Part shown: positions 6,661 to 54,848 of the stretch, piece by piece | How positions within the stretch are numbered: the first letter of the stretch is position 1 | Layout of the letters: each line of letters opens with the position of its first letter | Source: Candidatus Binatia bacterium | GTDB taxonomy: Bacteria; Desulfobacterota; Binatia; UBA1149; JAJCZL01 | DNA length: 64,000 bases | Reading direction: 5' to 3' | Assembly: GCA_028278325.1 (NCBI GenBank) | Contig: JANQEO010000361.1 | Span: 202 to 64,201, forward strand | Program-made: the position numbers and the translations under genes | Notes under the pieces: generated by a model | The model's input: only the letters and a program-made list of their open reading frames with translations | The model's database searches: none | Told to the model about the DNA's origin: nothing

Positions 6661-8535
6661 ATGTGTGGCATCACCGGCATCTGGCGACGCAAGGTCGGGC
6701 CCGCAGACCTTCAGGGTGAGCTGGAAGAGTCGGTCGCATCCATGCGCCATCGCGGTCCGGACGACAACGGCATCTGGCAGAATGCCTCCGGGCTAGGGTT
6801 CGGATTCACACGCTTGTCGATTCTGGACCTGTCGGAACTCGGCCACCAGCCGATGATTTCTCCGGACGGACGTTACGTGCTCGTATTCAACGGCGAAGTC
6901 TATAACTTCGCCGAGATCCGCAGGGACCTTGTCGGCCTCGGACACAATTTCGCCGGCAGCGGGGATACCGAAGTAATCCTGCACGCCCTTGCGGAATGGG
7001 GCTCACAAGCTGTCGAGCGGTTTGTCGGCATGTTCGCATTTGCTATTTGGGATGAGCGCGAGCAGCGACTCGAACTGGTACGCGACCGCGCGGGCGTCAA
7101 GCCTCTGCACTACGGCTGGGACGGCGAGACGCTGTGTTTTGGATCCGAGTTGAAAGCGCTGCGAGCTTACCGGCACTGGCGCCCGGAGGTCGACCGGCAG
7201 GCACTGGGTGAATTTCTGCAATACGGCTATGTCGCCGGCGACCGCACGATCTACCGGGGTATCCGCAAGCTCGAGCCGGGACATCGGCTCGTCCTCGAAG
7301 CCGGCGGAGAACCGCGTCTGGAGCGCTACTGGTCCGTGGACGACGCAGTGCGGGATGCCGCGACGGGCAGCGATGCCGATCTCGAAGCGGAGCTCGAAGC
7401 CCTGCTCATCGAATCCTGCCGCCTGCGCATGGTCTCGGATGTGCCGGTCGGCGTGTTCTTGTCGGGCGGCGTCGATTCGTCGCTGGTCACCGCGCTGCTC
7501 GCCAAACACCACGACAGGGAGATCCGCACCTTCACTATCGGCTTTGGCGCGGACAGCCACGACGAATCGCAATGGGCAAAGAAGGTCGCCGATCACTGCG
7601 GTACGCGGCATACCGAGTACATATTGAGCAGCGACGAAGGCCTCTCGATTGCCAAGGATTGGGGCTCGCTGTTCGATGAACCGTTCGGCGACCCCTCCGG
7701 TATCCCGACACTGCTGGTCTCGAGGCTCGCGCGCGAGCAGGTGAAGGTCGTGTTGTCGGCCGACGGCGGCGACGAGTTGTTCAGCGGTTATCGTGTCTAC
7801 GACAGCGTGCTGGAAAGGATGCAGAGTCTGTCTCGTGTGCCCCGCTGGCTGGGCACCGCTGCTGCCGGCGCAACATCAAGTCTCCTCCCCGCTCTTTCCG
7901 GTCGGATCTCCGAGCGGCGGCACCGTCAGCTGCGCCATTTCGGGCAGATGATGGCAAGCCCGACTCCGGGCCGGGTCATGGACATCCGGCTATCGCACTG
8001 GCAACCCGCGGACGTGGACCGCCTGATCGACGGCTATCGGCCACTGCGTCCCCTGGCCGACGACTATCCGGGCCGCGCCGATCAGCAGATGAGCTTGTGG
8101 GATATTCACCACTACCTTCCCGAGGATATCCTGACCAAGGTGGACCGAACGACGATGGCGGTGAGCATGGAAGGGCGTGAACCCCTGCTCGATCATCGCC
8201 TGATGGAATTCGCGCTAGCACTGCCGCTGCATCTCCGGCGCGGCGAACTGGGGCCGAAACACCTGCTGAAGCGGATTCTGCACAGGCACGTGGCCCGCGA
8301 GCTGGTCGATCGCCCCAAGCAGGGTTTCGGCATTCCGCTGGATGACTGGTTGAAACGGGATCTCAGACCGCTGGTGCAGGAATACCTGGCGGCGGATCGA
8401 ATTCGCAACGCGGGCCTGTTCGACCCTGCGACCGTCCGCGAGACAGTCGAGGCTTTCTACCATGGACGGGCGACGCAGAGTACGCCGCTTTGGTTCCTTT
8501 TGGCCTTCGAGATGTGGCGCGAACAGTGGGGCTGA
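6661..8535 (+). CDS. asnB: Asparagine synthase (glutamine-hydrolysing)-family amidotransferase, of the type associated with EPS loci
   Basis: The N-terminal MCGITGIW carries the Ntn catalytic Cys2. VGVFLSGGVDSS is the PP-loop. The length is 624 aa. Amidotransferases of this type are known companions of XrtA/PEP-CTERM EPS loci. Confidence 0.9.
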   Translation: MCGITGIWRRKVGPADLQGELEESVASMRHRGPDDNGIWQNASGLGFGFTRLSILDLSELGHQPMISPDGRYVLVFNGEVYNFAEIRRDLVGLGHNFAGSGDTEVILHALAEWGSQAVERFVGMFAFAIWDEREQRLELVRDRAGVKPLHYGWDGETLCFGSELKALRAYRHWRPEVDRQALGEFLQYGYVAGDRTIYRGIRKLEPGHRLVLEAGGEPRLERYWSVDDAVRDAATGSDADLEAELEALLIESCRLRMVSDVPVGVFLSGGVDSSLVTALLAKHHDREIRTFTIGFGADSHDESQWAKKVADHCGTRHTEYILSSDEGLSIAKDWGSLFDEPFGDPSGIPTLLVSRLAREQVKVVLSADGGDELFSGYRVYDSVLERMQSLSRVPRWLGTAAAGATSSLLPALSGRISERRHRQLRHFGQMMASPTPGRVMDIRLSHWQPADVDRLIDGYRPLRPLADDYPGRADQQMSLWDIHHYLPEDILTKVDRTTMAVSMEGREPLLDHRLMEFALALPLHLRRGELGPKHLLKRILHRHVARELVDRPKQGFGIPLDDWLKRDLRPLVQEYLAADRIRNAGLFDPATVRETVEAFYHGRATQSTPLWFLLAFEMWREQWG

Positions 8536-21243: not shown

Positions 21244-21339
21244 TGGTGATAAAACTCCGACCGTCCCAGGATAGAGATCGGCTTTTCTTCAGTTACATCG
21301 TTACCTAGTTGAACCCACATGGGTGCGAGCCCGACTGTA

Positions 21340-22461
21340 TCAATTATCCAGTATAGACCGCGTCTTGCGATAACGGCGCTTTAAGCCTGCACCGATCAGC
21401 TCGAGCTCAAACCGCAGCTTTCGCTTCTGAACTTTGGCCCAGATCAGCCTGTTCCGATCCGTGGAAAGAGACCGCTTGTACTGACCGCCGCCGGCGAGAA
21501 AGTCGTAGGCCTTCAGATTGCTTTTTGCGTTGAATCGAACGGCCTCAGCGTGACACAGCCAACCCGGTTTCATCTTCCCGTCCTCACTGTAGACGAGCCC
21601 CCCCTGGTAGAACAGGACCCTGCCGTTGAACACGAAATTGTACAGGCAGCCAACCGTGTGATCGCCGGCCGTGACCCGCAGCAACTGGATTTCTCCGCTG
21701 TCGAAGCGGTTGCGGATCAGCGCCGTGTGGAAGGACAGGGAGTACTGCCGACTGAAAGCGCCCTCGACACCCCTGTGGTCCCAGCGCTCCCTGTGAAGCT
21801 CGACGAGCTCATCAAACATCTCCAACGCCCGGTCGGCGTTCGCTGCAACTTCGCACTCAATAGCGCCGTTCTTCGAGTAGGCTTCGTAGCACCGCCGCAT
21901 TTGTCGACGAGTATTGCTGCTCAATAGACTTGCGTAGTCACCCTCCTTCTCGCGAACGGCCTCCAGGTTCACGTAAGGTGAGGGATCGTCGCGCACGACC
22001 ACCGGCCGCCAGCGCGGTGGGCACCGGCTGATCAGCGAATCCGCCACTGCATCCACCGCATGGCCCGGAAAGACGAATTCGTCCCAGGATTCCGTTCGAT
22101 CGAGCTCCTCCAGCACGTCCCAGATCCTTTCGGGCGGAGTCCCTTTCATGAGTACCTGGTTGTACTCGATCGACAGTCGATCGATCTCCGGTACTCCCGT
22201 GGCGTTGACGAAGACCGAGCGGACGGGGATGACCCGCTTCCGCCACAGGCCGCGGATTCCCGCGAAGAAGGCGAGCACCGGTGACCCGTCGAGGTACCCG
22301 ACCACCAGCTTCAGGGCGACCTCGCGAGGCAAGGAATCGAGCCAAGTCTCGACCCAGCCGGGGGACAGGAAGTAGTCTACCTCGAGCTCGCTGGTCAGTT
22401 CGTTCCAGATTTCGCGAATCTGCTCTCGATCGGTGTGCGCGTCCAGGAAGTGTAGTTTCAT
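21340..22461 (-). CDS. FemAB/CelD-like (BioF2-like, Acetyltransf_6-type) acyltransferase
   Basis: The preferred start is the ATG at 22461, preceded by AGGA; the ORF extends to 22548. The C-terminal segment reads LFYQGGLVYSEDGKMKPGWLCHAEAVRFNAKSNLKAYDFLAGGGQYKRSLS. This matches the SpG...D(F/L)(L/G)xGxxxYK signature shared with the 30487 and 32271 genes. Confidence 0.7.
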   Translation of the reverse strand: MKLHFLDAHTDREQIREIWNELTSELEVDYFLSPGWVETWLDSLPREVALKLVVGYLDGSPVLAFFAGIRGLWRKRVIPVRSVFVNATGVPEIDRLSIEYNQVLMKGTPPERIWDVLEELDRTESWDEFVFPGHAVDAVADSLISRCPPRWRPVVVRDDPSPYVNLEAVREKEGDYASLLSSNTRRQMRRCYEAYSKNGAIECEVAANADRALEMFDELVELHRERWDHRGVEGAFSRQYSLSFHTALIRNRFDSGEIQLLRVTAGDHTVGCLYNFVFNGRVLFYQGGLVYSEDGKMKPGWLCHAEAVRFNAKSNLKAYDFLAGGGQYKRSLSTDRNRLIWAKVQKRKLRFELELIGAGLKRRYRKTRSILDN

Positions 22462-22592
22462 TGTATCCTGCTGACTGCCTGGCGGGATGCCCCGACCGGC
22501 ATCCGCATCCTGCCCCGCGCCGCCCTCTACGTCCTTGAATTGAATCACATTCGACTATCAGGAATCTGCGACCCGCGGCGGAATCCCGTCGA

Positions 22593-24979: not shown

Positions 24980-25109
24980 TCACTCCGGTACCGGGCAGGC
25001 TTCCACGTCGCGGTAATGAGACCTGTTCCGACGCACTATACCGCCAGGCTTCCTATGATTGCCGCTTTGGTCGGCAGCCGCAGGTCAGGCGTGCCAAAGG
25101 TTGCTCAGG

Positions 25110-26369
25110 ATGAAGCAAGTGGCGTCGTCAGCCGAGCGGAACGACAAGGTATCTCATCTCGACCGGCGGCGGCCGGATCCGCCGCGGCTACGCGTACTCT
25201 GCCTGAACTACGAATACCCGCCCATGGGCGGCGGCGCCGGCAACGCAACCCAGTATACGGCTCTCGAACTCACTCGGCTGGGCCACACGGTCCACGTCCT
25301 GACGGCACGCCTGCCCGGCCAGTCCGACGTAGACACCGGCGACGGTCTCGTCGTACACCGTACGTTCAGCCGAAGAATCCACCTTCACCAGGCAGGCCTG
25401 ATCGGTGCGCTCACCTTTCTGCCGAGCGCGTTCCTGAGGCTCCGGAAGCTGGCGAAAGCGCACGACTACGACATCTTTCATTTCTACTTCGGCCTGCCTA
25501 CCGGCATGCTGGCGCTGTACGTCCGCTGGGTGCTGAAGAAGCCCTATATCATTGCCCTCCGGGGCTCGGACGTCCCGGGATATGACAACACCCGCTGGTA
25601 TCTGAGACCGCTACACGGTCTCCTCGCTCCTCTCAACCGGTACGTCTGGTCGCGAGCGGCTGCGGTGACGGCGCTGAGCAACAATCTGCGCGAGCTGGCC
25701 CTGGCCACGGCGCCGAACCTGCCGATTCGCGTCGTCGGCAACGGCATCGACACCGAAGTCTTCCCTCGGCGGCCGAAGCCGCCGACAGGCAAGCGGATAC
25801 GACTGCTGTGCGTCTGCAGACTGGTGCGCAGGAAGGGTCTCGAGTACCTGCTGAGGGCCATGCCCGAACTGGCCCGATCCGGCATGACGCTCGATATAGT
25901 CGGCACCGGCGAATGCTCCGACGAAGTCGAATCGCTGGTTGAACGTCTCGATCTGACGGAATCCGTGAATCTGGTCGGCTACGTGCCACGGGACGGCCTG
26001 GCGGACTATTACAACAGAGCGGACATCTTCATCCTGCCGTCCACGAGCGAGTCCTTCGGGCAGGTACTTCTCGAGGCGATGAGCTGCGGGTTGCCGGTCG
26101 TCGCATCCCGCGTAGGCGGCGTGCCGGAAACGCTGCATGACGGAGACGGCGGGCTGCTGATAGACCCCGCCAGTTCCGAGTCGATCGTCGCCGCAATCCG
26201 GAGACTCGCGTCGGATCCCGCTGCACGAACCGCCATGGGCGCATACAATCACGAGCTTGCGCGCAATGCCTTCCAGTGGTCCGGCGTGGCCGAGAAGTAC
26301 GAAGCCCTTTATCTGCAATGTCTTGGCGAAAGCAATCCAAAGGCGCGCGCACGCCTGCAGCAAGACTGA
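25110..26369 (+). CDS. Glycosyltransferase family 4
   Basis: The product contains LRVLCLNYEYPPMGGGAGNA at the N-terminus and FILPSTSESFGQVLLEAMSCGLPVVASRVGGVPETL as the E-x7-E region. I chose the ATG at 25110 as start; the ORF opens at 25059. Confidence 0.85.
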   Translation: MKQVASSAERNDKVSHLDRRRPDPPRLRVLCLNYEYPPMGGGAGNATQYTALELTRLGHTVHVLTARLPGQSDVDTGDGLVVHRTFSRRIHLHQAGLIGALTFLPSAFLRLRKLAKAHDYDIFHFYFGLPTGMLALYVRWVLKKPYIIALRGSDVPGYDNTRWYLRPLHGLLAPLNRYVWSRAAAVTALSNNLRELALATAPNLPIRVVGNGIDTEVFPRRPKPPTGKRIRLLCVCRLVRRKGLEYLLRAMPELARSGMTLDIVGTGECSDEVESLVERLDLTESVNLVGYVPRDGLADYYNRADIFILPSTSESFGQVLLEAMSCGLPVVASRVGGVPETLHDGDGGLLIDPASSESIVAAIRRLASDPAARTAMGAYNHELARNAFQWSGVAEKYEALYLQCLGESNPKARARLQQD

Positions 26370-26453
26370 TACGGCAGCGCGTTTCCAGCCGGCGACCGAG
26401 GCCGGCCGTGCGGCCCTTCTCGCGGGGCGCAGCCGGCACGCGGATCGAATGAC

Positions 26454-27728
26454 GTGAGTTTCGCCGAACGCCTGCGCGTCATCGCAAAGACCTCGCACTT
26501 GCTGCGTACGCAATGGTGGCCGGGCGACCGAATAGAGTCGTACCAGGACGCCCGTCTGCGGGAGATCCTGTCGTGGGCATCATCGCGAGTCCCGTACTAT
26601 CGGGACCTCGGGATTGCGAACGACGGCTTGCCCCCCCGGCAGTGGCTGAACAGGTTTCCAGTGCTTTCCAAGGCGCAGGTTCAATGCCGCACCGAAGACC
26701 TGTGTTCAAAGGACGAGATCGAGCGCGGCGTCTTTACGTCTCGCACTTCCGGAACGAGCGGAGAGCCGACTACCACCTATTTCGACAAGGAATCGTGGCT
26801 ACTCTGCAAGTATGCCCTGAAGGCGAGGCGCGTCTTTGCGGCAATCCGTCCTTTCGGCCAACGGCTGCTGTTCGTATCCGAACGTGCCGACGGCGCCGAG
26901 TTCTCAGCACCCGGCCGGAGACTTGCGGATCCCGTGCTTGCGGCGCGGCGCCTCTACATCGACTCACCGGTTTCGGAAAACGTCGGGGCGTTGATCGAGT
27001 TCAGACCCACGGTCCTTCAGGGGCCGCCCTCATATCTCGAATACATGGCCGAAGAATGCGGCAGGAGCGATGCCCCGGCTCTCAGGATTCCCGTCGCCTT
27101 CACGAGTTCCGAACTGCTGACAAAGGCGACTCGGGACAGACTCGAGTCGAGTTTCGGCAGCCGCGTCATAGACGTCTACGGCTCGACCGAATTCAAAGAG
27201 ATGGCGGTTCAGTGCCCGTACGGGCGTTACCATATCAACTTCGAGAGCGTGTTCCTGGAAGAACGGGCGGACCCGTCGACCGGGTTCCCGCGCCTCCTGA
27301 TCACGACTCTCGTGAACAAGGCCATGCCGCTCATCCGCTTCGACATAGGGGATCACGGATCGATCGGTTTCGAGCCCTGCGAATGCGGGAGGGAGAGCCC
27401 TCACATCAAGAGCCTGCACGGCAGGGAAGCCGAGCTCCTCCGGTTCGACGATGGCCGCGCTATCTCCCCGTTCGTTCTGACGACGCTCATCGGCAGATTC
27501 AGCGAAGTCAGGAATTTTTCCGTCCTGCACACGGCGCCGGATCAGGTCGTCGTGAAGGTGTTCGCCGAACCGTCACTACCCGTTCACCGGCAGACGGCAC
27601 TGCTCGACGAGATTCGGGCCCACTTGCCGGCCGGTACGTCCCTGACGCTCGCGATGCTCGAAACCCGTCTTCCGCCGGGGAAGCGAATAGCGGTGCGGCG
27701 AACGTTCGACGCAGTTGAGAGCGAATGA
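26454..27728 (+). CDS. PaaK/CapK-like adenylate-forming enzyme (phenylacetate-CoA ligase family)
   Basis: The product contains LREILSWASSRVPYYRDLG and RTSGTSGEPTTTYFDKESW (the P-loop-like AMP motif). It also has VIDVYGSTEF and C-terminal PPGKRIAVRR. Length and layout fit the CapK/F390-synthetase-like group. Confidence 0.8.
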   Translation: MSFAERLRVIAKTSHLLRTQWWPGDRIESYQDARLREILSWASSRVPYYRDLGIANDGLPPRQWLNRFPVLSKAQVQCRTEDLCSKDEIERGVFTSRTSGTSGEPTTTYFDKESWLLCKYALKARRVFAAIRPFGQRLLFVSERADGAEFSAPGRRLADPVLAARRLYIDSPVSENVGALIEFRPTVLQGPPSYLEYMAEECGRSDAPALRIPVAFTSSELLTKATRDRLESSFGSRVIDVYGSTEFKEMAVQCPYGRYHINFESVFLEERADPSTGFPRLLITTLVNKAMPLIRFDIGDHGSIGFEPCECGRESPHIKSLHGREAELLRFDDGRAISPFVLTTLIGRFSEVRNFSVLHTAPDQVVVKVFAEPSLPVHRQTALLDEIRAHLPAGTSLTLAMLETRLPPGKRIAVRRTFDAVESE

Positions 27729-28963
27729 CATTGATCGTCGAGACGGGCGGCTGCCTGGTCTATTGCGGTGACGACCTGTCCCTGGCGGCGGCGAACAGCG
27801 AAGTATCGGCGAAGTCGCCGCTCCGTCGAACCCGCCGGACGCCGGACGCCTTATCGCGTCTACTGAGCGACGCGCGCAACGTGCGATGGCGCGAGCTCGT
27901 GCCGCGCGCGTGCGTGATCCGCGCGCCCGAACGGGACTCGGGAGAGATCCTGACGGTTGGGTTCTCCGGGTCTTTACGCATCGTCGATGCCTTCGCCGCC
28001 GGCGTCTTCGGCCACGGCGACTATGACGCCGAACCCGCCCGCCTGAGCGCAATTCACGGCGTCGACATACTGATCTCGGACCATGCTCTGGCCGATCTGC
28101 CTACGCGATTCAGTCGGCCGTGCATTCGTATCCCTCCGTGGGTTCGGCAGGAGCGGCCCATCGCCGCGGATTGGACGGAGACCCTCGCCGGGCTGTCGTC
28201 GAAGCTGAGAAGCGAGCTCCGCCGCTGGATCAGACGCCAGGGCTACACAGTCGCTATCAGCGCCGGTGACGCCGCGATCCGCGATTATTATCGGGAGCTG
28301 CACCGTCCGTATCTCAGCGGTCGTTTCGGCGATGCAGCGATCGTGGCCCCGGAGTCGGCGTTCGTCCGGCAGCGCCGCGATGCGCTCCGCCTCGACCTGC
28401 TTCGGAATCGGTCACCCGTCGCGGCCAGCTTGCTGGAAGTGCACCAGCAGCGGCTGGCGATTCGCAGCAGCGCCATGCACCCGGACGCGCCTCCCCTGCC
28501 CGGCCGAGCCGACGTTCTGGACTACTTCAGCCTACTGATGGGGCAGCTGCTCGATTGCCGGACTCTCGATTTCGGCCTCAGCCGTCCGCATCTCGACAAC
28601 GGCGCGTTCCGCTACAAGACGAAGTGGGGCGCACGGCCCCAGGCCGTCGGCGGGCTGCTAAAGGCCGACGTCCGCGTTTATCCGCTCGAAAGGACCGAGG
28701 CGACGCTCGCGTTCCTCAGACGCAATCGCTTCCTGCAACGCGGCGAAGAAGGCCTGGTGCTTCGCATGCTCTACGATCGCGCCGCCGCGTGCAGGGATGA
28801 GGATTTGCCGGAGCCGCTCGGCCGGCTCACCCGGCCGGCGGGCGTCGAACGCGTTTACGACCCCGACGAGCTGCCGGCGCCCAAGGCCGAAACGCCCGGC
28901 GTCGTCTATCGCCCGCTGCGTGGCGCGAACGATCCCTACCGCATACCCGGACCGAGGCGATGA
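27725..28963 (+). CDS. FemAB/GNAT-like acyltransferase candidate (uncharacterised)
   Basis: ATGA overlaps at both ends (27725-27728 and 28960-28963) couple it translationally to its neighbours. The C-terminal third reads DVLDYFSLLMGQLLDCRTLDFGLSRPHLDNGAFRYKTKWGARP. This resembles the FemAB-like F(R/K)xKWGA ending. The N-terminal 150 aa are unrecognisable. Confidence 0.45.
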   Translation: MTLIVETGGCLVYCGDDLSLAAANSEVSAKSPLRRTRRTPDALSRLLSDARNVRWRELVPRACVIRAPERDSGEILTVGFSGSLRIVDAFAAGVFGHGDYDAEPARLSAIHGVDILISDHALADLPTRFSRPCIRIPPWVRQERPIAADWTETLAGLSSKLRSELRRWIRRQGYTVAISAGDAAIRDYYRELHRPYLSGRFGDAAIVAPESAFVRQRRDALRLDLLRNRSPVAASLLEVHQQRLAIRSSAMHPDAPPLPGRADVLDYFSLLMGQLLDCRTLDFGLSRPHLDNGAFRYKTKWGARPQAVGGLLKADVRVYPLERTEATLAFLRRNRFLQRGEEGLVLRMLYDRAAACRDEDLPEPLGRLTRPAGVERVYDPDELPAPKAETPGVVYRPLRGANDPYRIPGPRR

Positions 28964-30483
28964 GCCGCGCCGGCCGCTTCCTGAGGAACGTCTCGTCGAA
29001 CTACGCGGTCACCGCGGTCGACGCGCTGGTTTTCATTCTGCTGACGCCGTTTATCGTCCACCACCTGGGCATCGAGCTCTACGCGGTCTGGGTGATCATG
29101 CAGACGATCGCCTACTACCTCGATTTCCTGGACGTCGGCCTGCCGGACGCGCAGGTGCGCCAGCACGCTATTCTGGTGGCAAGAAACGACCCTGACGGCG
29201 TCGCAAAGCTCCAGGGCACCGTTTTCGTGCTCTACCTCGCCGCGGGCGCCGCGGCCATGCTCGCGGCGGCCGGACTCGTCGCAATGCCGACTCGGGAGTG
29301 GCTCGACATACCGGCATCGGCCGATGCCGCCTTTGCGCCGGTGCTGCTCCTCTTCGGCCTTGCCGCATCGCTTGCGTTCCTCGAGGGCGGGCTGGACAAC
29401 GTATTCGAGGGCTACCAGCGCTTCGACGTCATGAACGCCGTGCATGTCGTCTTTCAGGTGCTCTCGGCCCTGGCGACCGTCATCGTGCTCGACCTCGGCT
29501 TCGGCCTCGTCGCGCTCGCCCTCATCAAGTGCGTGGACACGGCGCTCGGCGCGATCGTCAAGCTGCTTCTGGTCCGACGGCTGTTTCCGCCCGAGGCCCG
29601 GCCCGGTCTGGGTTTCGACCGTGAAAGCTGGCAATCGATCAAGAGCTACAGTCTATGGAACAGCCTCAATGACTTCATGACCGAAGGCACGGCGCAATTC
29701 GACAAGATATTCATCCCCGTGCTGCTCTCCAGCGTCCTGGTGACGCCCTACTCGCTCGTCGTCGCGCTCGCCGCCGCGATCTTCCTGCTCGCCGAGCCGA
29801 TTACCGACACCTTCCTGCCCATCGCTGCCGAACGCCATGACAAGAACGACAGGCACGGTCTGACCGCTTTCCTTACCCGAGGGACCAAGCTCGTCACGCT
29901 GGCCACCCTGCCCGTGACGATCGTCGTGGCGGTTTTCGGGACATCCATCCTGGATCTTTGGGTGGGCGGCGAGTATACCGATGTGCCGGTGCCGGTCCTC
30001 TGGTTCACGGCCGCGAACTTCTTCTTTTCCACCTACCTCTGGACGGCGTTGAGCCTGCTGATGGCTGCCGGTGAGCTGAAGCGGATATTCTGGATGTCTG
30101 TGTTCGAAGTGGCGCTCGTTCTCCTGCTCATCCTGGCACTGGTCCCGCGGCTCGGTCTGCCGGGGCTCGCGCTTGCGGGCCTGATCGCCAATGTATTGAC
30201 CGGTGCCGGACTGTTCATCCCGGCCGCCTGCCGATGCACCCTGCTGGCGCCCGGGCCGTTCATCGGCCGCACGCTCGTGCCGCTCTGCCTCGCTGCTCTC
30301 CCCGGACTCGGCTTCGCCGTCTGGCTCGAAGTCCGCTTCGCGCCGTCCACCTGGGTCGGCACCTTGTCCGCCGGCGCGATGACGGTCGCCGTAGCGCTGA
30401 CCTCGCTGTTGATGTTCGGCACTACCCGGCGCGAGAGGCGGCGTTATTTCGTGACCGTCCGTCGCCTGGCAGGTCGGAGATAG
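28960..30483 (+). CDS. Wzx-like oligosaccharide flippase (MOP superfamily)
   Basis: The 507 aa product has about 12-14 TM segments. The N-terminus reads RNVSSNYAVTAVDALVFILLTPFIVHHLG, as expected for polysaccharide biosynthesis flippases. Confidence 0.75.
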   Translation: MSRAGRFLRNVSSNYAVTAVDALVFILLTPFIVHHLGIELYAVWVIMQTIAYYLDFLDVGLPDAQVRQHAILVARNDPDGVAKLQGTVFVLYLAAGAAAMLAAAGLVAMPTREWLDIPASADAAFAPVLLLFGLAASLAFLEGGLDNVFEGYQRFDVMNAVHVVFQVLSALATVIVLDLGFGLVALALIKCVDTALGAIVKLLLVRRLFPPEARPGLGFDRESWQSIKSYSLWNSLNDFMTEGTAQFDKIFIPVLLSSVLVTPYSLVVALAAAIFLLAEPITDTFLPIAAERHDKNDRHGLTAFLTRGTKLVTLATLPVTIVVAVFGTSILDLWVGGEYTDVPVPVLWFTAANFFFSTYLWTALSLLMAAGELKRIFWMSVFEVALVLLLILALVPRLGLPGLALAGLIANVLTGAGLFIPAACRCTLLAPGPFIGRTLVPLCLAALPGLGFAVWLEVRFAPSTWVGTLSAGAMTVAVALTSLLMFGTTRRERRRYFVTVRRLAGRR

Positions 30484-30486
30484 CCT

Positions 30487-32262
30487 GTGGGTCGGGTCAC
30501 CTACGTGCGTTATCTCCGGCATGAGGACGCGCGCGCCATCGCGCGACTCGAGCGCAGGGCCTATCCCCGCGACCAGCGGAACGGCCGTCGCGAGATCGCC
30601 GCAGACCTCAGAGAGGCCGAGCTCGACGGCACGAACCTGTCTGTCGGGGTGTTCGAAGGTACACGTCTCACCGGCTGTATCCTCGCGTTCCTGCGCAAAG
30701 ACCGGCCCGCGCTGTTCGAGGAATTCGAGGTCCGGCTCGATACCGCGTCCGACCTCGACGGCGCCTGTATCTACGTCGAAGACATCATCGTTCGGCCCGG
30801 CTTCCGACGCTGCGCCTTTCTGATGAACGCCAAATGGCAGCGGGAGCTGACGCTACACGCAGCCGGTCTACCCATGGACGCCTTCTGTACACCGGAGGTG
30901 CGCGAGCGCTGGAAGGCACACGGACGCTTGTTCAGCCGCAAGGGACTCGCACTCGACCGCGAGATGAAGGTCCGCGATCTGACCGGCAAGCAGGACTGGT
31001 ACTGGATGAGCTGGCGCCCGGCCGCCGACGGGCTGCCGCCAGAGCAATCGTCAGAGCAATTGCCGGGGCGGCCAGGCAAGCGGCTAGAGCAGGCCGCACT
31101 GCCGCCCGGCTACGAGGCCCGCCTGATGAATACGGCGGCGGAGTGGGCGCGGGTTCGCGAGGTCTGGGACGAGCTCGTCGACAAAATGCCCGAGGCCAGC
31201 GGCTTCCTCGGCTACGACTTCCTCTCGACCTGGTGGCGCCACAACGGCATGTCCCGGCATCTGGTCCTGCTCGGACTGTACCGCGACGGCCGTGCCGTCG
31301 GATTCGCACCGCTGATGCTGGCACCGAAGCGCATTCTTGGCGTGTATCGCTGGCGCCTGGAGTTCATCGGCGATCAGGTGAATATGGAACGGCCGGACCT
31401 CGTCGTCGACCCCGACGAGCCCGATGCGCGCAGGCTTTTATGGCGCGCCGCGATGAGCACGGCGTCGAAATGGGATGCCGCCTATTTGCGCGAGCAGACC
31501 AAACGGCCCGCCGATCATCCGGTGGCGCAGGAAATCGATGGCCAGCGGTTCTCCTTGTCCCGCTCAACGGGCATGGACTCTCCGCACGTGGTCGTAAGCA
31601 AGGATTGGGACGGCTATCTGGCGACACGGTCGCGCACGCTGCGCAAAGGATACAGACGCAAGCTTCGGCAGCTGGAACGCCTGGGCGAGTTCCGCTACGC
31701 GGGATACGACGGTCTTCAGAACGGCGACGATTGCCTGAACGCCTATCTGGACGTCGAATCCAGGAGCTGGAAGCGCGCCGGCAAGGTCGGCATTGGCAAC
31801 AACCGCTTCCGCCTGGCCTTCTACAGAGCTCTGGTCGCCTCCCTGGCGCCGTCCGGCCGTATTCGCTTCCGGTTCCTGACGATCGACGACAAGGCGATCG
31901 CCGCAACCTTCGGCGTGTTCCAACGAGGCCGCTTCGCGTCGCTGGAGATCTGCCACGATCAGGCCTACGACAGGTATTCGCCCGGCGTCGTCCTGACGGG
32001 CCTCGAGCTCGAGGAATGCCATCAATCGGGAGCCTACACGGACTACGACTTCCTGATCGGCACGTACAACAACAAAACCACCTGGGGAACGGACGCCCAC
32101 CGCGCCTGGCACCTGTACATCCTGCCGCGCACGCCCTGGGGCTGGTTGAATCGCTGGCTGATCTTCACGGTCAAGCCGGCCGTGAACCGGCTCATCGAGC
32201 GCTTCGACCTTCGGGACACGGTTGATCGCTGGCGCGGCAGGATCGAAGGCTATCTGCGCTGA
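30487..32262 (+). CDS. Two-domain acyltransferase with an N-terminal GNAT and a C-terminal FemAB/CelD-like (Acetyltransf_6-type) domain
   Basis: The N-terminal part contains IYVEDIIVRPGFRRCAF, which is GNAT motif A-like. The C-terminal part contains ESRSWKRAGKVG...IAATFGVFQRGRFASLEICHDQAYDRYSPGVVLTGLELEECHQSGAYTDYDFLIGTYNNKTTW. Confidence 0.65.
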   Translation: MGRVTYVRYLRHEDARAIARLERRAYPRDQRNGRREIAADLREAELDGTNLSVGVFEGTRLTGCILAFLRKDRPALFEEFEVRLDTASDLDGACIYVEDIIVRPGFRRCAFLMNAKWQRELTLHAAGLPMDAFCTPEVRERWKAHGRLFSRKGLALDREMKVRDLTGKQDWYWMSWRPAADGLPPEQSSEQLPGRPGKRLEQAALPPGYEARLMNTAAEWARVREVWDELVDKMPEASGFLGYDFLSTWWRHNGMSRHLVLLGLYRDGRAVGFAPLMLAPKRILGVYRWRLEFIGDQVNMERPDLVVDPDEPDARRLLWRAAMSTASKWDAAYLREQTKRPADHPVAQEIDGQRFSLSRSTGMDSPHVVVSKDWDGYLATRSRTLRKGYRRKLRQLERLGEFRYAGYDGLQNGDDCLNAYLDVESRSWKRAGKVGIGNNRFRLAFYRALVASLAPSGRIRFRFLTIDDKAIAATFGVFQRGRFASLEICHDQAYDRYSPGVVLTGLELEECHQSGAYTDYDFLIGTYNNKTTWGTDAHRAWHLYILPRTPWGWLNRWLIFTVKPAVNRLIERFDLRDTVDRWRGRIEGYLR

Positions 32263-32270
32263 GGGCAACG

Positions 32271-33371
32271 ATGACGTCGCAAGATGAATCCGCGGAAATC
32301 GTCACCGATCTCGAGGGCTGGGCGGCGCTGAAAGAGGCCTGGGCCAGGTGCCTGTCTTCGGCGCCAGGGGCAACGGCCTTTCAGAGCCATGAGTTTCTGC
32401 GCTGCTGGTGGGATCACTTCGGCGGCGACCAGACGCCCTTTGTGCTCGCCCTGCGCGAGACCGACCGGGTCCTCGGGATTGCGCCGCTGCAGCTCGTCAG
32501 GCGCCGGATCCTGGGCAGGCAGTACCGGGTGCTCGAGTTCATGGGCATGCCGGACGAACTGGACCGGCCGCAGTTCCTGGTCGGCGAGAACGACCGGACG
32601 ACGCTCGAGGGTCTGCTGGACGCCCTTGCCGCGCATCGAGACTGGGACATGATCCGGCTCGATGAACTGCCTGCCGAGAGCTGGCAACTGCCCGTGCTCG
32701 AGGCCTGGGCCGAGCGAAACGACTTCCGTTTCCGCAGTGAGCCGCTGCACCCGGTCCCCTTTCTCGTCAAGGGCGGCGACTGGAACTGGTACGTCGCGCA
32801 ACGTTCCCGGCGATTCGCCAAACGACTGCGGGAGACGGAGAGAAGGCTCGCCAGGGACTACAGCGTGAGCTATCGCTGGTGCCACGGCGGCGAAGCGTCG
32901 AAAGCGCTGCTCGAGGACTTCCTTGCCGTCGAATACAACAGCTGGAAGGCCTACGAAGGATTCGACGTCGGCGTCGAGCAGGCGTACCGGACCTTTTACG
33001 AGGATTTGCTGTGCCGCGAGTCAGAGGCGCTGCACGGCCATGTGCTGGTGCAGTACCTCGACGCAAACCCGAGCGCGGCGACGCTGGCGTTCAGCAGCGA
33101 AGGCGTTTACTACTCCCTACAGATTGCTCACGACAAAGCCTACGAGCGCTACTCTCCGGGCACGTTGCTCGAAGCCGTCGAGATGCGCTGGTTCTTCGAA
33201 CAGGACTGGCTGCGTCGCTACGAGTTCCTCGGCGGCGGCGGCGGCAACAAGGAGCGATGGACGAAGACCTCGGTCGACACCCGCACCGTCATCATTCGCA
33301 GACGCAGCAAGCGTCTGGCCCTCGGCGACCTCTCCGGCAGGTTTCTCCGCCCGATATTCGCACCGGAGTGA
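32271..33371 (+). CDS. FemAB/CelD-like (Acetyltransf_6-type) acyltransferase
   Basis: The product contains EYNSWKAYEG...ATLAFSSEGVYYSLQIAHDKAYERYSPGTLLEAVEMRWFFEQDWLRRYEFLGGGGGNKERW. This is the same signature as the 30487 C-terminal domain and the 21340 gene. Confidence 0.7.
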   Translation: MTSQDESAEIVTDLEGWAALKEAWARCLSSAPGATAFQSHEFLRCWWDHFGGDQTPFVLALRETDRVLGIAPLQLVRRRILGRQYRVLEFMGMPDELDRPQFLVGENDRTTLEGLLDALAAHRDWDMIRLDELPAESWQLPVLEAWAERNDFRFRSEPLHPVPFLVKGGDWNWYVAQRSRRFAKRLRETERRLARDYSVSYRWCHGGEASKALLEDFLAVEYNSWKAYEGFDVGVEQAYRTFYEDLLCRESEALHGHVLVQYLDANPSAATLAFSSEGVYYSLQIAHDKAYERYSPGTLLEAVEMRWFFEQDWLRRYEFLGGGGGNKERWTKTSVDTRTVIIRRRSKRLALGDLSGRFLRPIFAPE

Positions 33372-33408: not shown

Positions 33409-35454
33409 TCAGTCCGTGCGCGGCAAGCGGACGGAAAACGTGGCCCCCTCACCGGCCTGCGACACCACCTCGAGCTGACCGCCGAGCGATTTGACATATT
33501 CCCTGGCCTGGTACGCGCCGATACCCATGCTGGCGCTGCCCTTCGTGCTGTCGAACGGCCGAAACAGGCGCTCGCGGACGAATTCCGGGCTCATGCCGGC
33601 CCCGTTATCCGTTATCGACACCGTGATCGAATCGTGCCGACTGACCGCGTCGACGCGCACCCGGCCGTCTGCAGGGGTCGCATCCTGCGCGTTTCGGATC
33701 AGATGCTCGAACACGTTGGCCAGGCGATCCCTGTCCGCGTACACGTAGCCTGACAGGTCGCCGTCGGTCAGCTCGGGCCTCGGGCACCGGTTTGCGCAGC
33801 CCGCGACCACGCCTTCGAGGATCTCCCGCAGCGCCACGCGCCGGTTTCTCGGTGCCTTCGAGCCCCGGCTGAGCTGCTCCATCAGCCGGCGCATCCGGGC
33901 GACCGAGTTGGCAATGGTGCCGATTGCGTCGTCGACGAACTCCGGGTTGTCCCGATGCCGCTCGGCGTTGCTCACGACCAGCGACTGTTGGGCGATCAGG
34001 TTGTTCAGATCGTGCATCAGGAACGCCGTCAGGCGGTTGTAAGCGCCGAACTGGCGGCTTTCGGCGAGGCGCTGGTCGGAGTCCGCCTGATTGATGTGCA
34101 TGGCGACGTGGCGGCCAACGGTCTTCAGGAGATCGTGATCTTCGAAATTGAGGCTCGGCGGAATCCTGGGGCGGAGCAGCACGATGAAGCCGAGCAGCTG
34201 ACGGCCGAGAAACACCGGTACGACCAGCCACCAGTTCTGGCCCTCCACGAGCCAGTCGCTGAGTTCGAGGCCCTCGTACCGGGACGGATGTCGGCGCAGC
34301 TCCTGCAGATCGATCACCCACTGGCGGGCGGTCAGAAACTGGACCAGTCCCGATTCCGCCGGGATGCCGGGCACCGGCGGCGGCGTTGCCTGCCATGCAC
34401 CGGAGGGCTTGTATTCCCGGCTGTCGGGATCGGCCAGGAACATCACGCCGCCCGGGCTGTTGACGATCTGAGCCACTGCCCGGACCGCGGTGGCGGCGAC
34501 GTCCTCGAAGCCGGATTCGGACAGGGTGCCGATGAAGCGCAGCCACTCCTCGCGGTAGTCGTACTTGTACTGGAAAAAGGTCTTGAGCAGCGCGACGCGC
34601 ACGCGCGAGCGCAGACTGGCCGAGGCCAGCAGCACGACCCCGGCGACGATCGCGCCGGCCAGCAGCACGGCGCTGCCGACGGTGCCCCAGGAGCCGCCGT
34701 AGTCCCGCACGTATCGATAGCCGATGATCACCAGCAGGACGTATAGCGCCAGCACCGTGGCGCCGAAGGAATACAACACGATGCGCCGCGGCAGCCGCCC
34801 TTCGGACACGGCCTCCGACCGACGCCAGACGCCGAGCAGCAGCGGCAGGGTCAGCAGCGCGCTGACATAGCCTCGCGCCGACAGCAGGTCCGAATTCAGC
34901 GGTGCGCCGGCGATCCCGGCGACAAAAAAGACGAGGTCGAAGAGGAAGAAGCCGGCAATGGCGATACAGAGATAGGTCGTGCTGGAGCGGAGTTCGGGAG
35001 ACGAGTTGCGGAACACCTGTTCGACGCCGAGGACCGTCAACAGCGACAACGCGTAGCCGCCGGCGACCCAGGCGCTGACGTCGCCCGGCACCTCGGGCTG
35101 GCCGATCCAGAAGAACACCGGTGCGACCACCAACACGAGCACGAGCACAGCGAAGCCTGAGCGCAGCGGATTGCGATCGCCGAGCCCGCCGACGGCCCCC
35201 AGCAAGCCGACCGTCGCCGCCAGCCATGCGCCGCCGCGCACCGCGTCGGCAACGAACGCAGCCAGGCCGGGCCCGAGCGGGTTCAGATCGGCCAGCAGCC
35301 AAACGCCCGCCCAGACGGTGCTGACGCCGGCCGCGACCAACAGAATGCCGGCTGCCGGCACGCGATCGCGGCGCAGGAGTATCAGCACGGCGAGCGCAGC
35401 ATGCGTGAGCAGCGCAAGCCCGAATCCGCTTGCGCCAAGGTAGTGAGCTTGCAT
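33409..35454 (-). CDS. prsK: PrsK-type (XrtA/PEP-CTERM system) sensor histidine kinase
   Basis: The N-terminal 300 aa or so are polytopic. A GAF-like region follows. The H-box is FLMHDLNNLIAQQSLVVSNAERHRDNPEFVDD, which matches my recollection of the PrsK family H-box. The HATPase tail reads ITDNGAGMSPEF...GMGIGAYQAREY. Confidence 0.8.
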   Translation of the reverse strand: MQAHYLGASGFGLALLTHAALAVLILLRRDRVPAAGILLVAAGVSTVWAGVWLLADLNPLGPGLAAFVADAVRGGAWLAATVGLLGAVGGLGDRNPLRSGFAVLVLVLVVAPVFFWIGQPEVPGDVSAWVAGGYALSLLTVLGVEQVFRNSSPELRSSTTYLCIAIAGFFLFDLVFFVAGIAGAPLNSDLLSARGYVSALLTLPLLLGVWRRSEAVSEGRLPRRIVLYSFGATVLALYVLLVIIGYRYVRDYGGSWGTVGSAVLLAGAIVAGVVLLASASLRSRVRVALLKTFFQYKYDYREEWLRFIGTLSESGFEDVAATAVRAVAQIVNSPGGVMFLADPDSREYKPSGAWQATPPPVPGIPAESGLVQFLTARQWVIDLQELRRHPSRYEGLELSDWLVEGQNWWLVVPVFLGRQLLGFIVLLRPRIPPSLNFEDHDLLKTVGRHVAMHINQADSDQRLAESRQFGAYNRLTAFLMHDLNNLIAQQSLVVSNAERHRDNPEFVDDAIGTIANSVARMRRLMEQLSRGSKAPRNRRVALREILEGVVAGCANRCPRPELTDGDLSGYVYADRDRLANVFEHLIRNAQDATPADGRVRVDAVSRHDSITVSITDNGAGMSPEFVRERLFRPFDSTKGSASMGIGAYQAREYVKSLGGQLEVVSQAGEGATFSVRLPRTD

Positions 35455-41068: not shown

Positions 41069-42457
41069 CTAGCTGGACAGTGACACCCGGTCCGTCTTGC
41101 GCCGACCGTACGCCTGCTTCTCTTCCGGCGCATCGTTGCTGCGCCCGATCGCGAAATAGCGGATTCCGAAGCCCGACATCAGCTCCGGGTCGTAGAGATT
41201 ACGGCCGTCGAAGATCACCGGATCTGTCAGGGTCTTCTTGATGAGTTGGAAATCGGGGCTGCGGAATTCCTGCCATTCGGTGACGATAGCCAGCGCGTCG
41301 GCGCCTTCGATTGCGGCATGCGCGGACTCACAGAGTTCGAGGCCCGTCTGGTCTGGGTAGATGCGCCGGGTCTCGTCCATGGCCTCCGGATCGTAGGCCC
41401 GTACCGCCGCGCCCGCCTCCCAAAGCGCCTCCATCAGCGCGCGGCTGGACGCCTCGCGCATGTCGTCGGTCTTCGGTTTGAAGGACAGTCCCCATAGCGC
41501 AATGGTCTTGCCGCCCAGGTCGCCGGCGTAGAATTCCGAGATTTTCTCGAACAGGCGGCGCTTCTGACGCTCGTTCACGTCCTCGACGGCATCGAGCAAC
41601 CGGGCCTCGTAGCCCCAGTCCGCCGCGGAGCGGCCCAGCGCTCTCACGTCCTTCGGAAAACAAGACCCGCCGTAGCCGGCGCCGGGATAGATGAAGTGAT
41701 AGCCGATACGCGGGTCCGAGCCGATACCGATCCGCACCTTCTCGATGTCCGCTCCGCAGCGTTCGGCGATATTGGCCACCTCGTTCATGAAGCTGATCTT
41801 GGTCGCCAGCATGGCGTTGGCCGCGTACTTGGTCAGCTCGGCGGAGCGCACGTCCATCGCGATCATCCGGTCGTGACTGCGGTTGAAGGGCTCGTACAGC
41901 GCCCGCAGGAGCTCAGTGGTGCGCGGATTGTCCGTCCCGACGATGATTCGATCCGGCTTCATGAAATCGTCGATCGCCGCGCCTTCTTTCAGGAATTCCG
42001 GGTTTGAAACCACGTCGAATTCCAGCGCGGCCGAGCGCTCGTTGAGCGTCGCGCGTATCGCCTCTCGAACCTTGTCCGCGGTGCCAACCGGCACCGTGGA
42101 CTTGTCCACGATGATCCGATACTCGTTCATGTGCTCGCCGATCGACTTTGCGACGGCAAGTACGTGCTTCAGATCCGCCGAGCCGTCCTCGTCGGGCGGC
42201 GTGCCAACGGCGATGAACTGGAACAGGCCGTGGTCGACGCCCTTCTGGACGTCGGTCGTAAACTCGAGGCGGCCCGCTTCGGCGTTTCGCTCGAGGTAGT
42301 CGTCGAGGCCGGGCTCGTAGATCGGAACCTGACCTCGTTTCAACCGCTCGATCTTGTCCGCGTCGATGTCGACGCAGACGACGTGGTTGCCCATTTCCGC
42401 CATGCAGGCGCCGGTGACCAGACCGACGTAGCCGGAGCCGAAGATAGTCAGATTCAT
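41069..42457 (-). CDS. ugd: UDP-glucose 6-dehydrogenase
   Basis: The product contains [44 protein letters not shown] and [16 protein letters not shown]. Confidence 0.9.
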
Positions 42458-46011: not shown

Positions 46012-46176
46012 TCCGCTGCGGCAGGTCCCGGGTTAGGTCGCCGAGCGTTGAAAACTCACGACGGTACCGGCACGGTGACTTGGAAAAGTCTGACGAAGTA
46101 CCGGCTGCAGAAGAATTGGGCGTTGGCAAAGACCCAGCAGGCAGTGACGAGCATCTTTGCTGCCCGTGGCGGAGAC

Positions 46177-54240: not shown

Positions 54241-54848
54241 TGCGCGGTCTGCTGGTACTCGGTGCCGGAGGGCACGGGCGTGTCGTCGCGGACGCCGCGT
54301 CAGGAGAATTCGACCGGATCGCGTTTCTGGATGATGCAGGCGACGCCCAGCCGGGGCACTGGCCGGTGCTGGGCCCGATCGAGGAACTGGCCGAGCATCG
54401 ACAGGCGTTCGGAGCGGCGGCGGTGTCGGTCGGCGACAACCGACGGCGGCTGGCCCTGCTCGACCGGCTGGCCGCAACCGAGTTCCGGATCGTGACCATC
54501 CTGCATCCGTCCGCATTCGTCAGCCAGCGGGCGCGGCTCGGAGCAGGCAGCGTCATCCTGGCGCAGGCCGCCGTGAACATCGGCGCACACATCGGACGAG
54601 GCTGCATCGTCAATACAGGTGCGACGGTCGATCACGATTGCGTCCTGGGAGACGGCGTGCACGTATCGCCGGGCGCGCACGTTGCCGGCGGCGTCACAGT
54701 CGGAGAGCGTTCATGGATCGGGATCGGAGCCGTCGTAAGAGAGGGGACCGCGATCGGTTCCGACGTCATCGTCGGAGCGGGTGCCGCTGTCGTCAAGGAC
54801 GTCGAGGCAGGCGAGACCGTGATCGGCGTACCGGCGGGACGGGCATAG
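54240..54848 (+). CDS. NeuD/PglD-family left-handed beta-helix sugar N-acetyltransferase
   Basis: The GTG at 54240 overlaps the TAG of the previous gene. The N-terminal Rossmann-like segment is LLVLGAGGHGRVVADAA. Hexapeptide repeats follow: IGAHIGRGCIVNTGATVDHDCVLGDGVHVSPGAHVAGGVTVGERSWIGIGAVV. Confidence 0.85.
   Translation: MRGLLVLGAGGHGRVVADAASGEFDRIAFLDDAGDAQPGHWPVLGPIEELAEHRQAFGAAAVSVGDNRRRLALLDRLAATEFRIVTILHPSAFVSQRARLGAGSVILAQAAVNIGAHIGRGCIVNTGATVDHDCVLGDGVHVSPGAHVAGGVTVGERSWIGIGAVVREGTAIGSDVIVGAGAAVVKDVEAGETVIGVPAGRA

Follow-up and report, generated by a model that had tools for sequence, protein, structure and literature searches.

A conserved six-gene cassette in an exopolysaccharide locus

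The stretch of DNA analysed here (64 kb of contig JANQEO010000361.1 from Candidatus Binatia bacterium; hereafter, the window) is occupied by one large exopolysaccharide (EPS) locus, probably of the PEP-CTERM type, within which positions 25059-33371 form a single conserved cassette. Its six genes encode, in this order, a GT4 glycosyltransferase; a PaaK/CapK-family adenylate-forming ligase; a 412-amino-acid (aa) protein predicted to be a FemX-like transferase; a Wzx-type flippase; a 591-aa fusion of a GNAT-like domain with an Acetyltransf_6 domain; and a 366-aa Acetyltransf_6 protein (Table 1). An earlier note, made from the nucleotide sequence alone, described five of these genes, from the ligase onward, with two ATGA overlaps, two spacers of less than 10 nucleotides (nt) and the motifs TSGTSGEPT and FRYKTKWGA. 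All of these features are present, but the unit was drawn too short: the upstream GT4 gene, omitted there, belongs to it.

As read from the sequence, the stop codon of the ligase gene and the start codon of the 412-aa gene share the tetranucleotide ATGA (27725-27728), as do the stop codon of the 412-aa gene and the start codon of the flippase gene (28960-28963), that is, the 412-aa gene is translationally coupled on both sides. The flippase stop codon (TAG, 30481-30483) is separated by 3 nt from the GTG start of the 591-aa gene at 30487, the stop codon of which (TGA, 32260-32262) is followed, after 8 nt, by the ATG of the 366-aa gene at 32271. The five open reading frames (ORFs) from the ligase to the 366-aa gene have a GC content at third codon positions of 0.75-0.84, and the GC content of the window is 62%. 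A scan of low weight detected no terminator-like sites on the + strand within the operon, and the promoter and terminator scan of the operon yielded one site each, both on the minus strand and at or below the shuffle expectation, and was uninformative.

The order GT4, ligase, 412-family protein, 507-aa Wzx, 587-591-aa fusion and approximately 366-aa Acetyltransf_6 protein is found again in six or more further, independent contigs. Order and strand are the same in five loci (L001, L003, L005, L007 and L028) and, up to the end of the contig, in L004; a further locus, L029, contains the same gene set rearranged on two strands, along with Cupin_8 and DegT genes. Identity to the window proteins is 58-64% for GT4, 47-52% for the ligase, 43-51% for the 412-aa protein, 60-65% for Wzx, 50-52% for the 591-aa protein and 48-52% for the 366-aa protein. 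Wzx, the most conserved cassette protein, is 506-507 aa long wherever the gene is complete. The GT4 gene is located immediately upstream of the ligase or 412-family gene in eight loci (L001, L003, L004, L005, L007, L028, L034 and L037), whereas the flanking genes vary. Distantly related bacteria of sediments share this gene order; those close relatives that carry a name are metagenome-assembled genomes of Woeseiaceae. The co-occurrence of ligase, 412-aa protein and flippase, on which the earlier note had staked its proposal, is thus borne out: many diverged contigs carry the three in this order.

Table 1. Genes of the cassette and other genes of the window discussed in the text
Feature	Positions	Strand	Basis
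GT4 glycosyltransferase, cassette gene 1	25059..26369	+	Glycos_transf_1 3.9e-41, Glyco_transf_4 2.4e-20
PaaK/CapK-family adenylate-forming ligase, 424 aa	26454..27728	+	ANL motifs, PDB sequence matches
412-aa double-GNAT, FemX-like predicted transferase	27725..28963	+	AlphaFold2 model, Foldseek, family profile
Wzx-type MOP flippase, 507 aa	28960..30483	+	PF13440 1.5e-11
591-aa fusion: N-terminal GNAT-like domain and C-terminal Acetyltransf_6	30487..32262	+	PF13480 2.1e-25
366-aa Acetyltransf_6 protein (CelD/BcsL-type), last cassette gene	32271..33371	+	PF13480 1.7e-17
Fourth Acetyltransf_6 paralogue, 402 aa as ORF, outside the cassette	21340..22548	-	PF13480 2.9e-25
PrsK, XrtA/PEP-CTERM histidine kinase, convergent with the cassette	33409..35454	-	TIGR02916 583 bits (cut-off 300)
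AsnB-like glutamine amidotransferase, XrtA/PEP-CTERM type	6661..8535	+	TIGR03108 538.8 (cut-off 816.9); TIGR01536 459 bits, passes
DegT-family sugar aminotransferase	54638..56074	+	PF01041 2.8e-98
UDP-glucose 6-dehydrogenase (Ugd)	41069..42457	-	TIGR03026 468 bits
Second MOP-family flippase	60791..62131	+	PF01943 9.3e-20, PF13440 6.9e-13

Family and fold assignments of the cassette proteins

The ligase contains the motifs TSGTSGEPT (residue 98) and YGSTE (residue 242), and the lysine of PPGK at residue 410 of 424. In a phmmer search of the PDB it matches PaaK (9s3l, 1.4e-22), AjiA1 (4.7e-21) and a NatL2-type enzyme (6siw, 1.2e-19), the latter two being ligases that form esters independently of coenzyme A (CoA), and it also matches the DVU1553 family model at 1.4e-30. 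Motifs and PDB matches agree with the earlier call of a PaaK/CapK-like adenylating enzyme and assign the protein, at the sequence level, to the PaaK/CapK branch of the ANL superfamily. All PaaK-type NCBIfam models score it under their cut-offs, and because the two PaaK equivalog models give 45.3 bits (TIGR02155, cut-off 646.3) and 66.3 bits (NF041878, cut-off 700), it is a relative of PaaK rather than PaaK itself. Many of its homologues (838 scored matches) are named phenylacetate-CoA ligase, and some contain the PF27533 CapK_C domain; this domain was not reported for the window ligase but is present in homologues of 40-45% identity (P0220, P0228 and P0235). PaaK-family ligases either form CoA thioesters or, like NatL2, join an acid to a nucleophile without CoA (PMC7204872). 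The window ligase ends 14 residues past the catalytic lysine and thus lacks the C-terminal extension that blocks CoA use in NatL2 (PMC7204872), so that it could still use CoA.

The 412-aa protein, which contains the FRYKTKWGA segment, has no Pfam match at E ≤ 0.01, PF13480 and PF02388 included. Its sole match to a curated model is to TIGR03019 (E = 3.8e-5), and at 22.9 bits against a cut-off of 260.35 it is not a member of that family; the other paralogues in the window do not match TIGR03019. A single-sequence PDB search returned only noise, and none of the 17 relatives found by a word-indexed search carries a precomputed Pfam domain. An exhaustive search with the profile of the 412 family detected 1,913 clusters at E ≤ 1e-3, 118 of them at E ≤ 1e-30. 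Among 30 members spread over the family, 13 match PF13480, weakly (best, 4.6e-10), and one matches PF02388 FemAB, at 2.4e-6. We therefore regard the 412 family, as judged from these profiles, as a branch related to PF13480 yet separate from it.

The AlphaFold2 model of the 412-aa protein (predicted local distance difference test score, pLDDT, 81.7; predicted template modelling score, pTM, 0.81) adopts a double-GNAT fold. Its top PDB matches in Foldseek are Sbb17/Sba18 (Sbb17 at 1.6e-10), A-PGS/L-PGS/MprF and FemX (3.5e-8). The family profile, when compared to the PDB, also identified Sbb17/Sba18, at E = 0.0012, the remaining matches being to a designed protein and a ribosomal protein. In an hhalign comparison, residues 143-342 align with the Acetyltransf_6 part of the 591-aa family (E = 5e-4). 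The pattern LDFGLSRPHL..G..YK.KW is invariant in the alignment of the 412 family, and its invariant lysine K298 (YK.KW) pairs with the invariant K530 of the 591 family (NK..W). This [FY]K..W motif resembles, in sequence, the FK catalytic-lysine motif of FemX (Lys305) and DhpH-C (Phe328, Lys329) (PMC12945691). The alignment of the 412 family with Sbb17 ends just ahead of the lysine motif, and the 591 family reaches only AANAT in the PDB, via its N-terminal domain. BLASTP detected no similarity between the 412-aa and 366-aa proteins, and hhalign no relation between the 412 family and a lone FemAB_like (PF04339) protein encoded beside a related ligase in locus L030. The 412 and 591 families are uniformly basic by calculated isoelectric point (8.9-10.4 for the 412 family; mostly 8.2-9.6 for the 591 family). 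Taken together, model and profiles describe the 412-aa protein as a FemX-like double GNAT on a divergent, ligase-associated branch that domain libraries mostly miss. The FemAB-like assignment of the earlier note is accordingly borne out for the predicted fold, and fails for direct matches to the Pfam, FemAB and PF04339 models.

The 591-aa and 366-aa proteins, as well as the 402-aa paralogue encoded upstream of the cassette, all match PF13480 (90.0, 64.4 and 89.5 bits, respectively; gathering threshold, 22 bits), in agreement with their earlier designation as CelD-like. PF02388 FemAB is matched by no protein in the window. In the 591-aa protein, PF13480 spans residues 385-528, and the C-terminal approximately 390 residues of its AlphaFold2 model (pLDDT 87.3) match FemX (1.4e-10; TMt 0.65; root mean square deviation, rmsd, 4.8) and Sba18 (TMt 0.69) in Foldseek. 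The N-terminal approximately 180 residues form a conserved, divergent single GNAT-like domain, which matches AANAT at E of about 0.06 and in which PF00583 is weakly detected in 7 of 11 orthologues (best, 1.3e-4). The protein thus was correctly described as a fusion of GNAT and CelD-like parts, with a GNAT call that is weak at the sequence level. The 366-aa protein is paralogous to the C-terminal region of the 591-aa protein (phmmer cross-matches of about 1e-40), and the NCBIfam model nearest to both is BspF, named crotonyl transferase. The locus does contain four paralogues, as had been noted, but only three are part of the conserved cassette: the 402-aa paralogue was rejected as a member given that no cassette locus contains its orthologue.

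The flippase matches PF13440 with 44.5 bits (cut-off 23) and, weakly, the MurJ and Wzx models of NCBIfam. The best NCBIfam matches of the cassette GT4 are EPS glycosyltransferases, with weak matches to GlcN-PG synthase.

Variant loci and the proposed decoration pathway

Of the roughly 40 distinct loci that contain a 412-family gene, 18 also have a ligase gene, many other contigs being too short to judge. In 17 of these 18 loci the two genes are no more than 1.4 kb apart, and in 17 they are on the same strand, with other phyla included. Distant family members in other phyla (23-30% identity) were found in Armatimonadota next to two ligases, five paralogues and an adjacent pyruvyl transferase (L011) and in Omnitrophota next to two ligases and a GNAT-fused paralogue (L012). 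In a locus from Planctomycetia (L018, 2508-15404), three PaaK-like ligases surround a 1000-aa 412-family protein. The flanking genes there encode a GT2, an NDP-sugar dehydrogenase-like protein and two further dehydrogenases, one of the Glu/Leu/Phe/Val type and one for D-2-hydroxyacids, an arrangement that hints at 2-hydroxy acids derived from amino acids as the ligase substrates of this locus. Locus L016 combines two ligases with an AsnB-like gene, and in L019, L039 and L047 an AsnB-like gene is directly adjacent to the distant 412-family member.

Ligase and 412-family genes are, however, separable. Two loci without the ligase, L034 and L037, encode GT4, the 412-family protein, Wzx and the 591-type protein, followed in L037 by a 366-type protein and DegT, and the gap between the GT4 and 412-family genes is too small for a ligase gene. 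A third, L006, which adjoins PrsK, ManB and ManC as in the window, encodes GT4, a 412-family protein, an ABC exporter, Cupin_8, a second 412-like protein and a 555-aa Acetyltransf_6 fusion. In a rough neighbour-joining tree (no support values), the ligase-less 412-family members nest among the ligase-bearing ones. In the reverse sampling, three ligases of 40-45% identity to that of the window were inspected. In L031, GT4, ligase and Wzx occur without a Fem-like gene; in L030, the ligase is ATGA-coupled to a FemAB_like (PF04339) gene, with a GT4 gene nearby; and L052 (3097-14414, from a JGI metagenome) encodes GT4, a CapK-like ligase, two FemAB_like (PF04339) proteins, two ATP-grasp proteins (ATPgrasp_Ter), a 429-aa protein outside recognised families, a MurJ-like flippase (Wzx) and DegT. 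Different Fem-like families hence fill the same slot in a recurring GT4-ligase-Fem-Wzx architecture. The association of ligase and Fem-like genes is strong, yet their separability favours successive steps over an obligate donor-supplier pair.

Two of these neighbourhoods have features of their own. L052 encodes three amide-forming enzyme classes within one glycan operon. In L031 (3620-7475), the GT4-ligase-Wzx trio adjoins an MBOAT gene, an 85-aa ORF of carrier-protein size without a domain match and a gene for an FkbH_N protein, and looks like a Dlt-like system for ester-linked polysaccharide decoration.

Genes that could supply the acceptors are present in the window and recur with the cassette. 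DegT, a possible source of the amine acceptor, is encoded directly after the cassette in two loci (L029 and L037) and at the end of the related one in L052; Ugd, a source of uronic acid and hence possibly of a carboxylate substrate, is encoded near the cassette in L001, L028, L029, L034 and L037. Judging from the gene content of the window, the polymer could contain both uronic acids and 4-amino sugars, either of which might plausibly serve non-sugar groups as acceptor or partner.

From the genes of the cassette, their coupling and conservation, and the families and folds assigned to their products, all observed here, we infer a lipid-linked acceptor, a tRNA donor, an order of steps and a type of ligase substrate, as follows. 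A sugar would be added to a lipid-linked intermediate at the cytoplasmic face of the membrane by the GT4 enzyme. The 412-, 591- and 366-aa FemX-like proteins would then form one bond each, most likely transferring an aminoacyl group from tRNA to the amine of a DegT-derived amino sugar or of an earlier-added residue, and the GNAT-like N-terminal domain of the 591-aa protein may cap a free amine with an acyl group. The ligase would perform an adjacent ATP-dependent step, adenylating a small carboxylic acid (an organic, hydroxy or amino acid) that is joined to the growing substituent directly or via CoA. The finished unit, with its amide- (possibly ester-) linked groups, would be flipped and exported by the dedicated Wzx. 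To the general claim, that the cassette serves non-sugar decoration in the cytoplasm and has a flippase of its own, we assign a probability of about 0.7; a cytoplasmic, pre-flipping decoration pathway had already been proposed in the earlier note and is well supported by the gene context. The whole statement, tRNA donors included, is tentative and falls somewhat short of even odds.

The predicted structures point to aminoacyl-tRNA donors for the Fem-like proteins: the nearest solved folds of both models are all aminoacyl-tRNA-dependent, and one of them aminoacylates an amino sugar. Transferases of this kind need no dedicated ligase. Orf11, of the Sba18/Sbb17 group, is a Gly-tRNA-dependent aminoacylase that acts on an amino sugar (PMC12945691), and the type B flagellin cluster of Clostridioides difficile, which contains FemAB-like, ATP-grasp and FdtB-like genes, yields a peptidylamido-sugar (PMC5207246). 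Successive bond-forming steps are favoured over a strict relay by the ligase-less cassettes, L031 and these tRNA-dependent nearest folds.

Several observations weigh against this pathway or its donor assignment. The TM-scores of the 412-aa model are modest (0.35/0.48) and the rmsd is high. Other double-GNAT structural matches, namely VipF and the tandem GNAT of the clavulanate pathway, bind acetyl-CoA or CoA, and BspF, the nearest model of the two Acetyltransf_6 proteins, is named a crotonyl transferase; therefore, the fold alone does not fix the donor. The tRNA and Rfam scans detected no tRNA gene in the window, nor was a gene resembling an aminoacyl-tRNA synthetase found there. The absence of the ligase from L034, L037 and L006 holds at the level of the cassette, and these genomes could carry a ligase elsewhere. 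Finally, the ATGA coupling and the 17-of-18 proximity are equally expected of a donor-supplying pair; adjacency and translational coupling cannot discriminate such a pair from successive steps.

The relay implied in the earlier note, with the ligase making the donor for the Fem-like enzymes, is the closest competitor. A carboxylic or amino acid would be converted to acyl-AMP and, probably, acyl-CoA, from which a 412-aa protein that has abandoned tRNA would transfer the acyl group to the sugar, while the two Acetyltransf_6 proteins would use the same or common acyl-CoA donors. We consider this possible but on the unlikely side. It would account for the ATGA coupling of ligase and 412-aa genes and for the proximity and shared strand of the two genes in other loci, including Armatimonadota (two ligases, five paralogues), Omnitrophota, Planctomycetia and Syntrophobacteraceae. 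It is also consistent with the amino-acid and D-2-hydroxyacid dehydrogenases beside the L018 ligases, as potential makers of small organic acids, with the 40-45%-identity CapK-like ligases that directly precede FemAB_like genes in L030 and L052, with the missing CoA-blocking extension and with BspF, named a crotonyl transferase, as the nearest model of the Acetyltransf_6 proteins. It conflicts, however, with the retention of a 412-family orthologue in the ligase-less L034, L037 and L006, with the L031 ligase cassette that has no Fem-like gene, and with the tRNA dependence of the best structural and profile matches, and the cassette includes no carrier-protein gene. In its boldest form, the 412 family would be a tRNA-free Fem-fold family fed with acyl-AMP or acyl-CoA by its coupled CapK/PaaK ligase, a hitherto undescribed, ribosome-independent two-enzyme system, spread over at least five phyla, for the writing of amide-linked acids; this we find doubtful, but, if true, the multi-ligase, multi-transferase versions would be able to build short peptide-like chains on polysaccharide precursors.

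Another reading, which we judge improbable, makes the acceptor the activated partner: the ligase would adenylate the C6 carboxylate of a nucleotide- or lipid-linked uronic acid, and an amine such as taurine or an amino acid would attack it, perhaps assisted by the 412-aa protein, to yield an amino-acid uronamide. The Staphylococcus aureus type 1 capsule locus, from which the name CapK originates, makes a taurine-amidated GalNAcA polymer. Amino-acid uronamides occur in exopolysaccharides such as Vibrio VPS, with a glycine amide on GulNAcA (PMC12993940). Ugd, encoded in the window itself and close to the cassette of five other loci, fits this reading, except that it is still nearby in ligase-less variants; so do the NDP-sugar dehydrogenase-like gene directly ahead of the L018 ligases and the pairing of 412-family relatives with AsnB-like enzymes, a second carboxylate-adenylating class. 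Yet no PaaK-family member is known to take a sugar acid, the acyl group of the characterised Fem-fold enzymes named here comes from an ester donor, the fold is not known to activate the carboxylate of the acceptor itself, and three separate Fem-like proteins would be left without a role.

We regard it as highly improbable that the product is an aminoacylated glycolipid or another envelope lipid, made and flipped in the manner of MprF, rather than a decorated exopolysaccharide. In favour of such a product, the top structural matches include MprF and aaPGS, some GT4 enzymes are glycolipid synthases (the cassette GT4 weakly matching GlcN-PG synthase), the L006 variant is preceded by a PF03706 LPG_synthase_TM gene and the second flippase of the window could serve the main repeat unit. 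Against it, the cassette is always found within polysaccharide loci (with ManB, ManC, Ugd, WecB, Wzy, Bac_transf and PrsK in the vicinity), its flippase is of the Wzx/Polysacc_synt_3 type and the best NCBIfam matches of its GT4 are EPS glycosyltransferases.

Related systems and other features of the window

Each cassette component falls, by sequence comparison, within or near a known family. Like FemX, FemA, FemB and MurM, the Fem-like proteins are predicted to have a double-GNAT fold, with FemX among the top Foldseek matches for both models, and the Fem systems likewise act on cytoplasmic nucleotide- or lipid-linked glycan precursors prior to flipping, with paralogues adding residues in succession. 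Unlike in the Fem systems, the cassette proteins lack PF02388, their context is exopolysaccharide rather than cell wall, and a PaaK-type ligase is coupled to them. Orf11, Sba18 and Sbb17 of the BD-12 pathway, which catalyse Gly-tRNA-dependent aminoacylation of the amino-sugar amine of streptothrisamine (PMC12945691), include the best structural match (1.6e-10) and the sole meaningful PDB profile match of the 412 family, but belong to a Streptomyces antibiotic pathway, are approximately 310 aa long rather than 412 and have no ligase, GT4 or flippase partner. MprF, a high-ranking structural match, resembles the cassette in that a tRNA-dependent double GNAT is functionally joined to a flippase; it differs in acting on a lipid head group, in having a PF03706 rather than MOP flippase and in being a fusion protein rather than an operon.

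In locus type, the window resembles the XrtA/PEP-CTERM loci, with FemAB (TIGR03019) and AsnB (TIGR03108) proteins; PrsK, an AsnB-like gene and stp2-like GT4 genes are all present in the window, the latter below cut-offs. The association of FemAB-like and AsnB-like genes with PEP-CTERM loci is established in silico. The TIGR03019 proteins are a biochemically uncharacterised family, outside which the 412-aa protein falls, and, to our knowledge, the PEP-CTERM gene set as described so far does not include the arrangement of ligase, Wzx and fusion protein. The 591-, 366- and 402-aa proteins are members of the CelD/BcsL family (PF13480), and one homologue is named CelD/BcsL family acetyltransferase at the source; this family has no established polysaccharide chemistry, and the 591-aa protein adds to it an N-terminal GNAT-like domain. 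The ligase shares the ANL core motifs with PaaK, CapK, NatL2 and AjiA1, the family of its best PDB sequence matches, but is encoded in a polysaccharide operon, not in a cluster for aromatic catabolism or benzoxazoles. The C. difficile type B flagellin cluster (FemAB-like CDR20291_0244, ATP-grasp 0245 and FdtB-like 0247; PMC5207246) similarly brings together, in a glycan locus, a Fem-like protein with a sugar aminotransferase and a carboxylate-amine ligase that depends on ATP, and L052 adds a CapK-like ligase to the same logic. That cluster differs in making a protein O-glycan and in using an ATP-grasp rather than an ANL ligase, and the role of the Fem-like gene is unproven there too.

In the literature, we found no description or characterisation of the six-gene cassette, no description of the ligase-associated 412-aa double-GNAT branch and none of the recurring architecture of GT4, CapK-like ligase, Fem-like protein and Wzx, sometimes with DegT. 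Many bacterial O-antigens, capsules and biofilm polysaccharides bear amide-linked amino acids or small organic acids, which set charge, recognition by phages and lyases and matrix cross-linking; few of the enzymes that install these groups have been identified. In Vibrio VPS, the glycine is read by the lyase RbmB (PMC12993940). The cassette is a compact, conserved set of candidate decorating enzymes with assayable predictions, and the double-GNAT family defined here comprises roughly a thousand or more sequence clusters that are largely missed by domain libraries. Among the genes of polysaccharide loci that lack an explanation, those for CapK-like ligases and CelD/FemAB-like proteins are some of the most frequent, and both would gain a function once it is settled if the ligase supplies the Fem-like enzyme or works alongside it.

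Besides the cassette, the window encodes many GT4 enzymes, GDP-mannose and GDP-fucose genes, WecB, a PglF-like dehydratase, a small Bac_transf initiating enzyme, Wza, Wzi and a Wzy-like protein. The AsnB-like amidotransferase reported in the earlier note is indeed encoded there, whereas no exosortase was recognised in the 64 kb. The presence of two flippases suggests that two different lipid-linked units are exported. Two short adjacent ORFs (46048-46542 and 46573-47172, +), the second with a partial ABC_membrane match, are homologous to the approximately 590-aa ABC exporter that replaces Wzx in L006, L033, L035 and L036 and probably are the broken remnant of such an exporter. Sulfotransferase-family genes are present at 3230-4171 (+) and 62095-63060 (+), which makes sulfation of the polysaccharide probable; the L003 cassette, too, has a sulfotransferase gene at its flank.

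A full-length c-di-GMP-I riboswitch (RF01051; 20040-20127, -; 79.9 bits, E 4.4e-14) was detected directly upstream of, and slightly overlapping, the called start of a 530-aa ORF (18464-20056, -) with weak beta-helix and pectate-lyase matches, which may encode a c-di-GMP-controlled polysaccharide-cleaving or -binding protein within the EPS locus. This ORF is part of a low-GC island (14000-21300; 0.52-0.55 against about 0.62 elsewhere) that looks like a separately acquired block and also carries a PMT_2-like GT-C gene (16047-17996, -) and a methyltransferase gene (20443-21243, -). Together with two ArnC-like polyprenyl-phosphate GT2 genes (12223-14168, -), the GT-C gene has the signature of a periplasmic, post-flipping glycosylation branch apart from the cassette.

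The gene at 22593-24272 (-), divergent from the cassette, encodes a 559-aa protein without an NCBIfam match, the C-terminal half of which matches GINT1_N (1.9e-33), the N-terminal domain of the eukaryotic glucosamine inositolphosphorylceramide transferase. This gene is not conserved with the cassette and was rejected as a member, as GT4 is preceded by a different gene in each locus.

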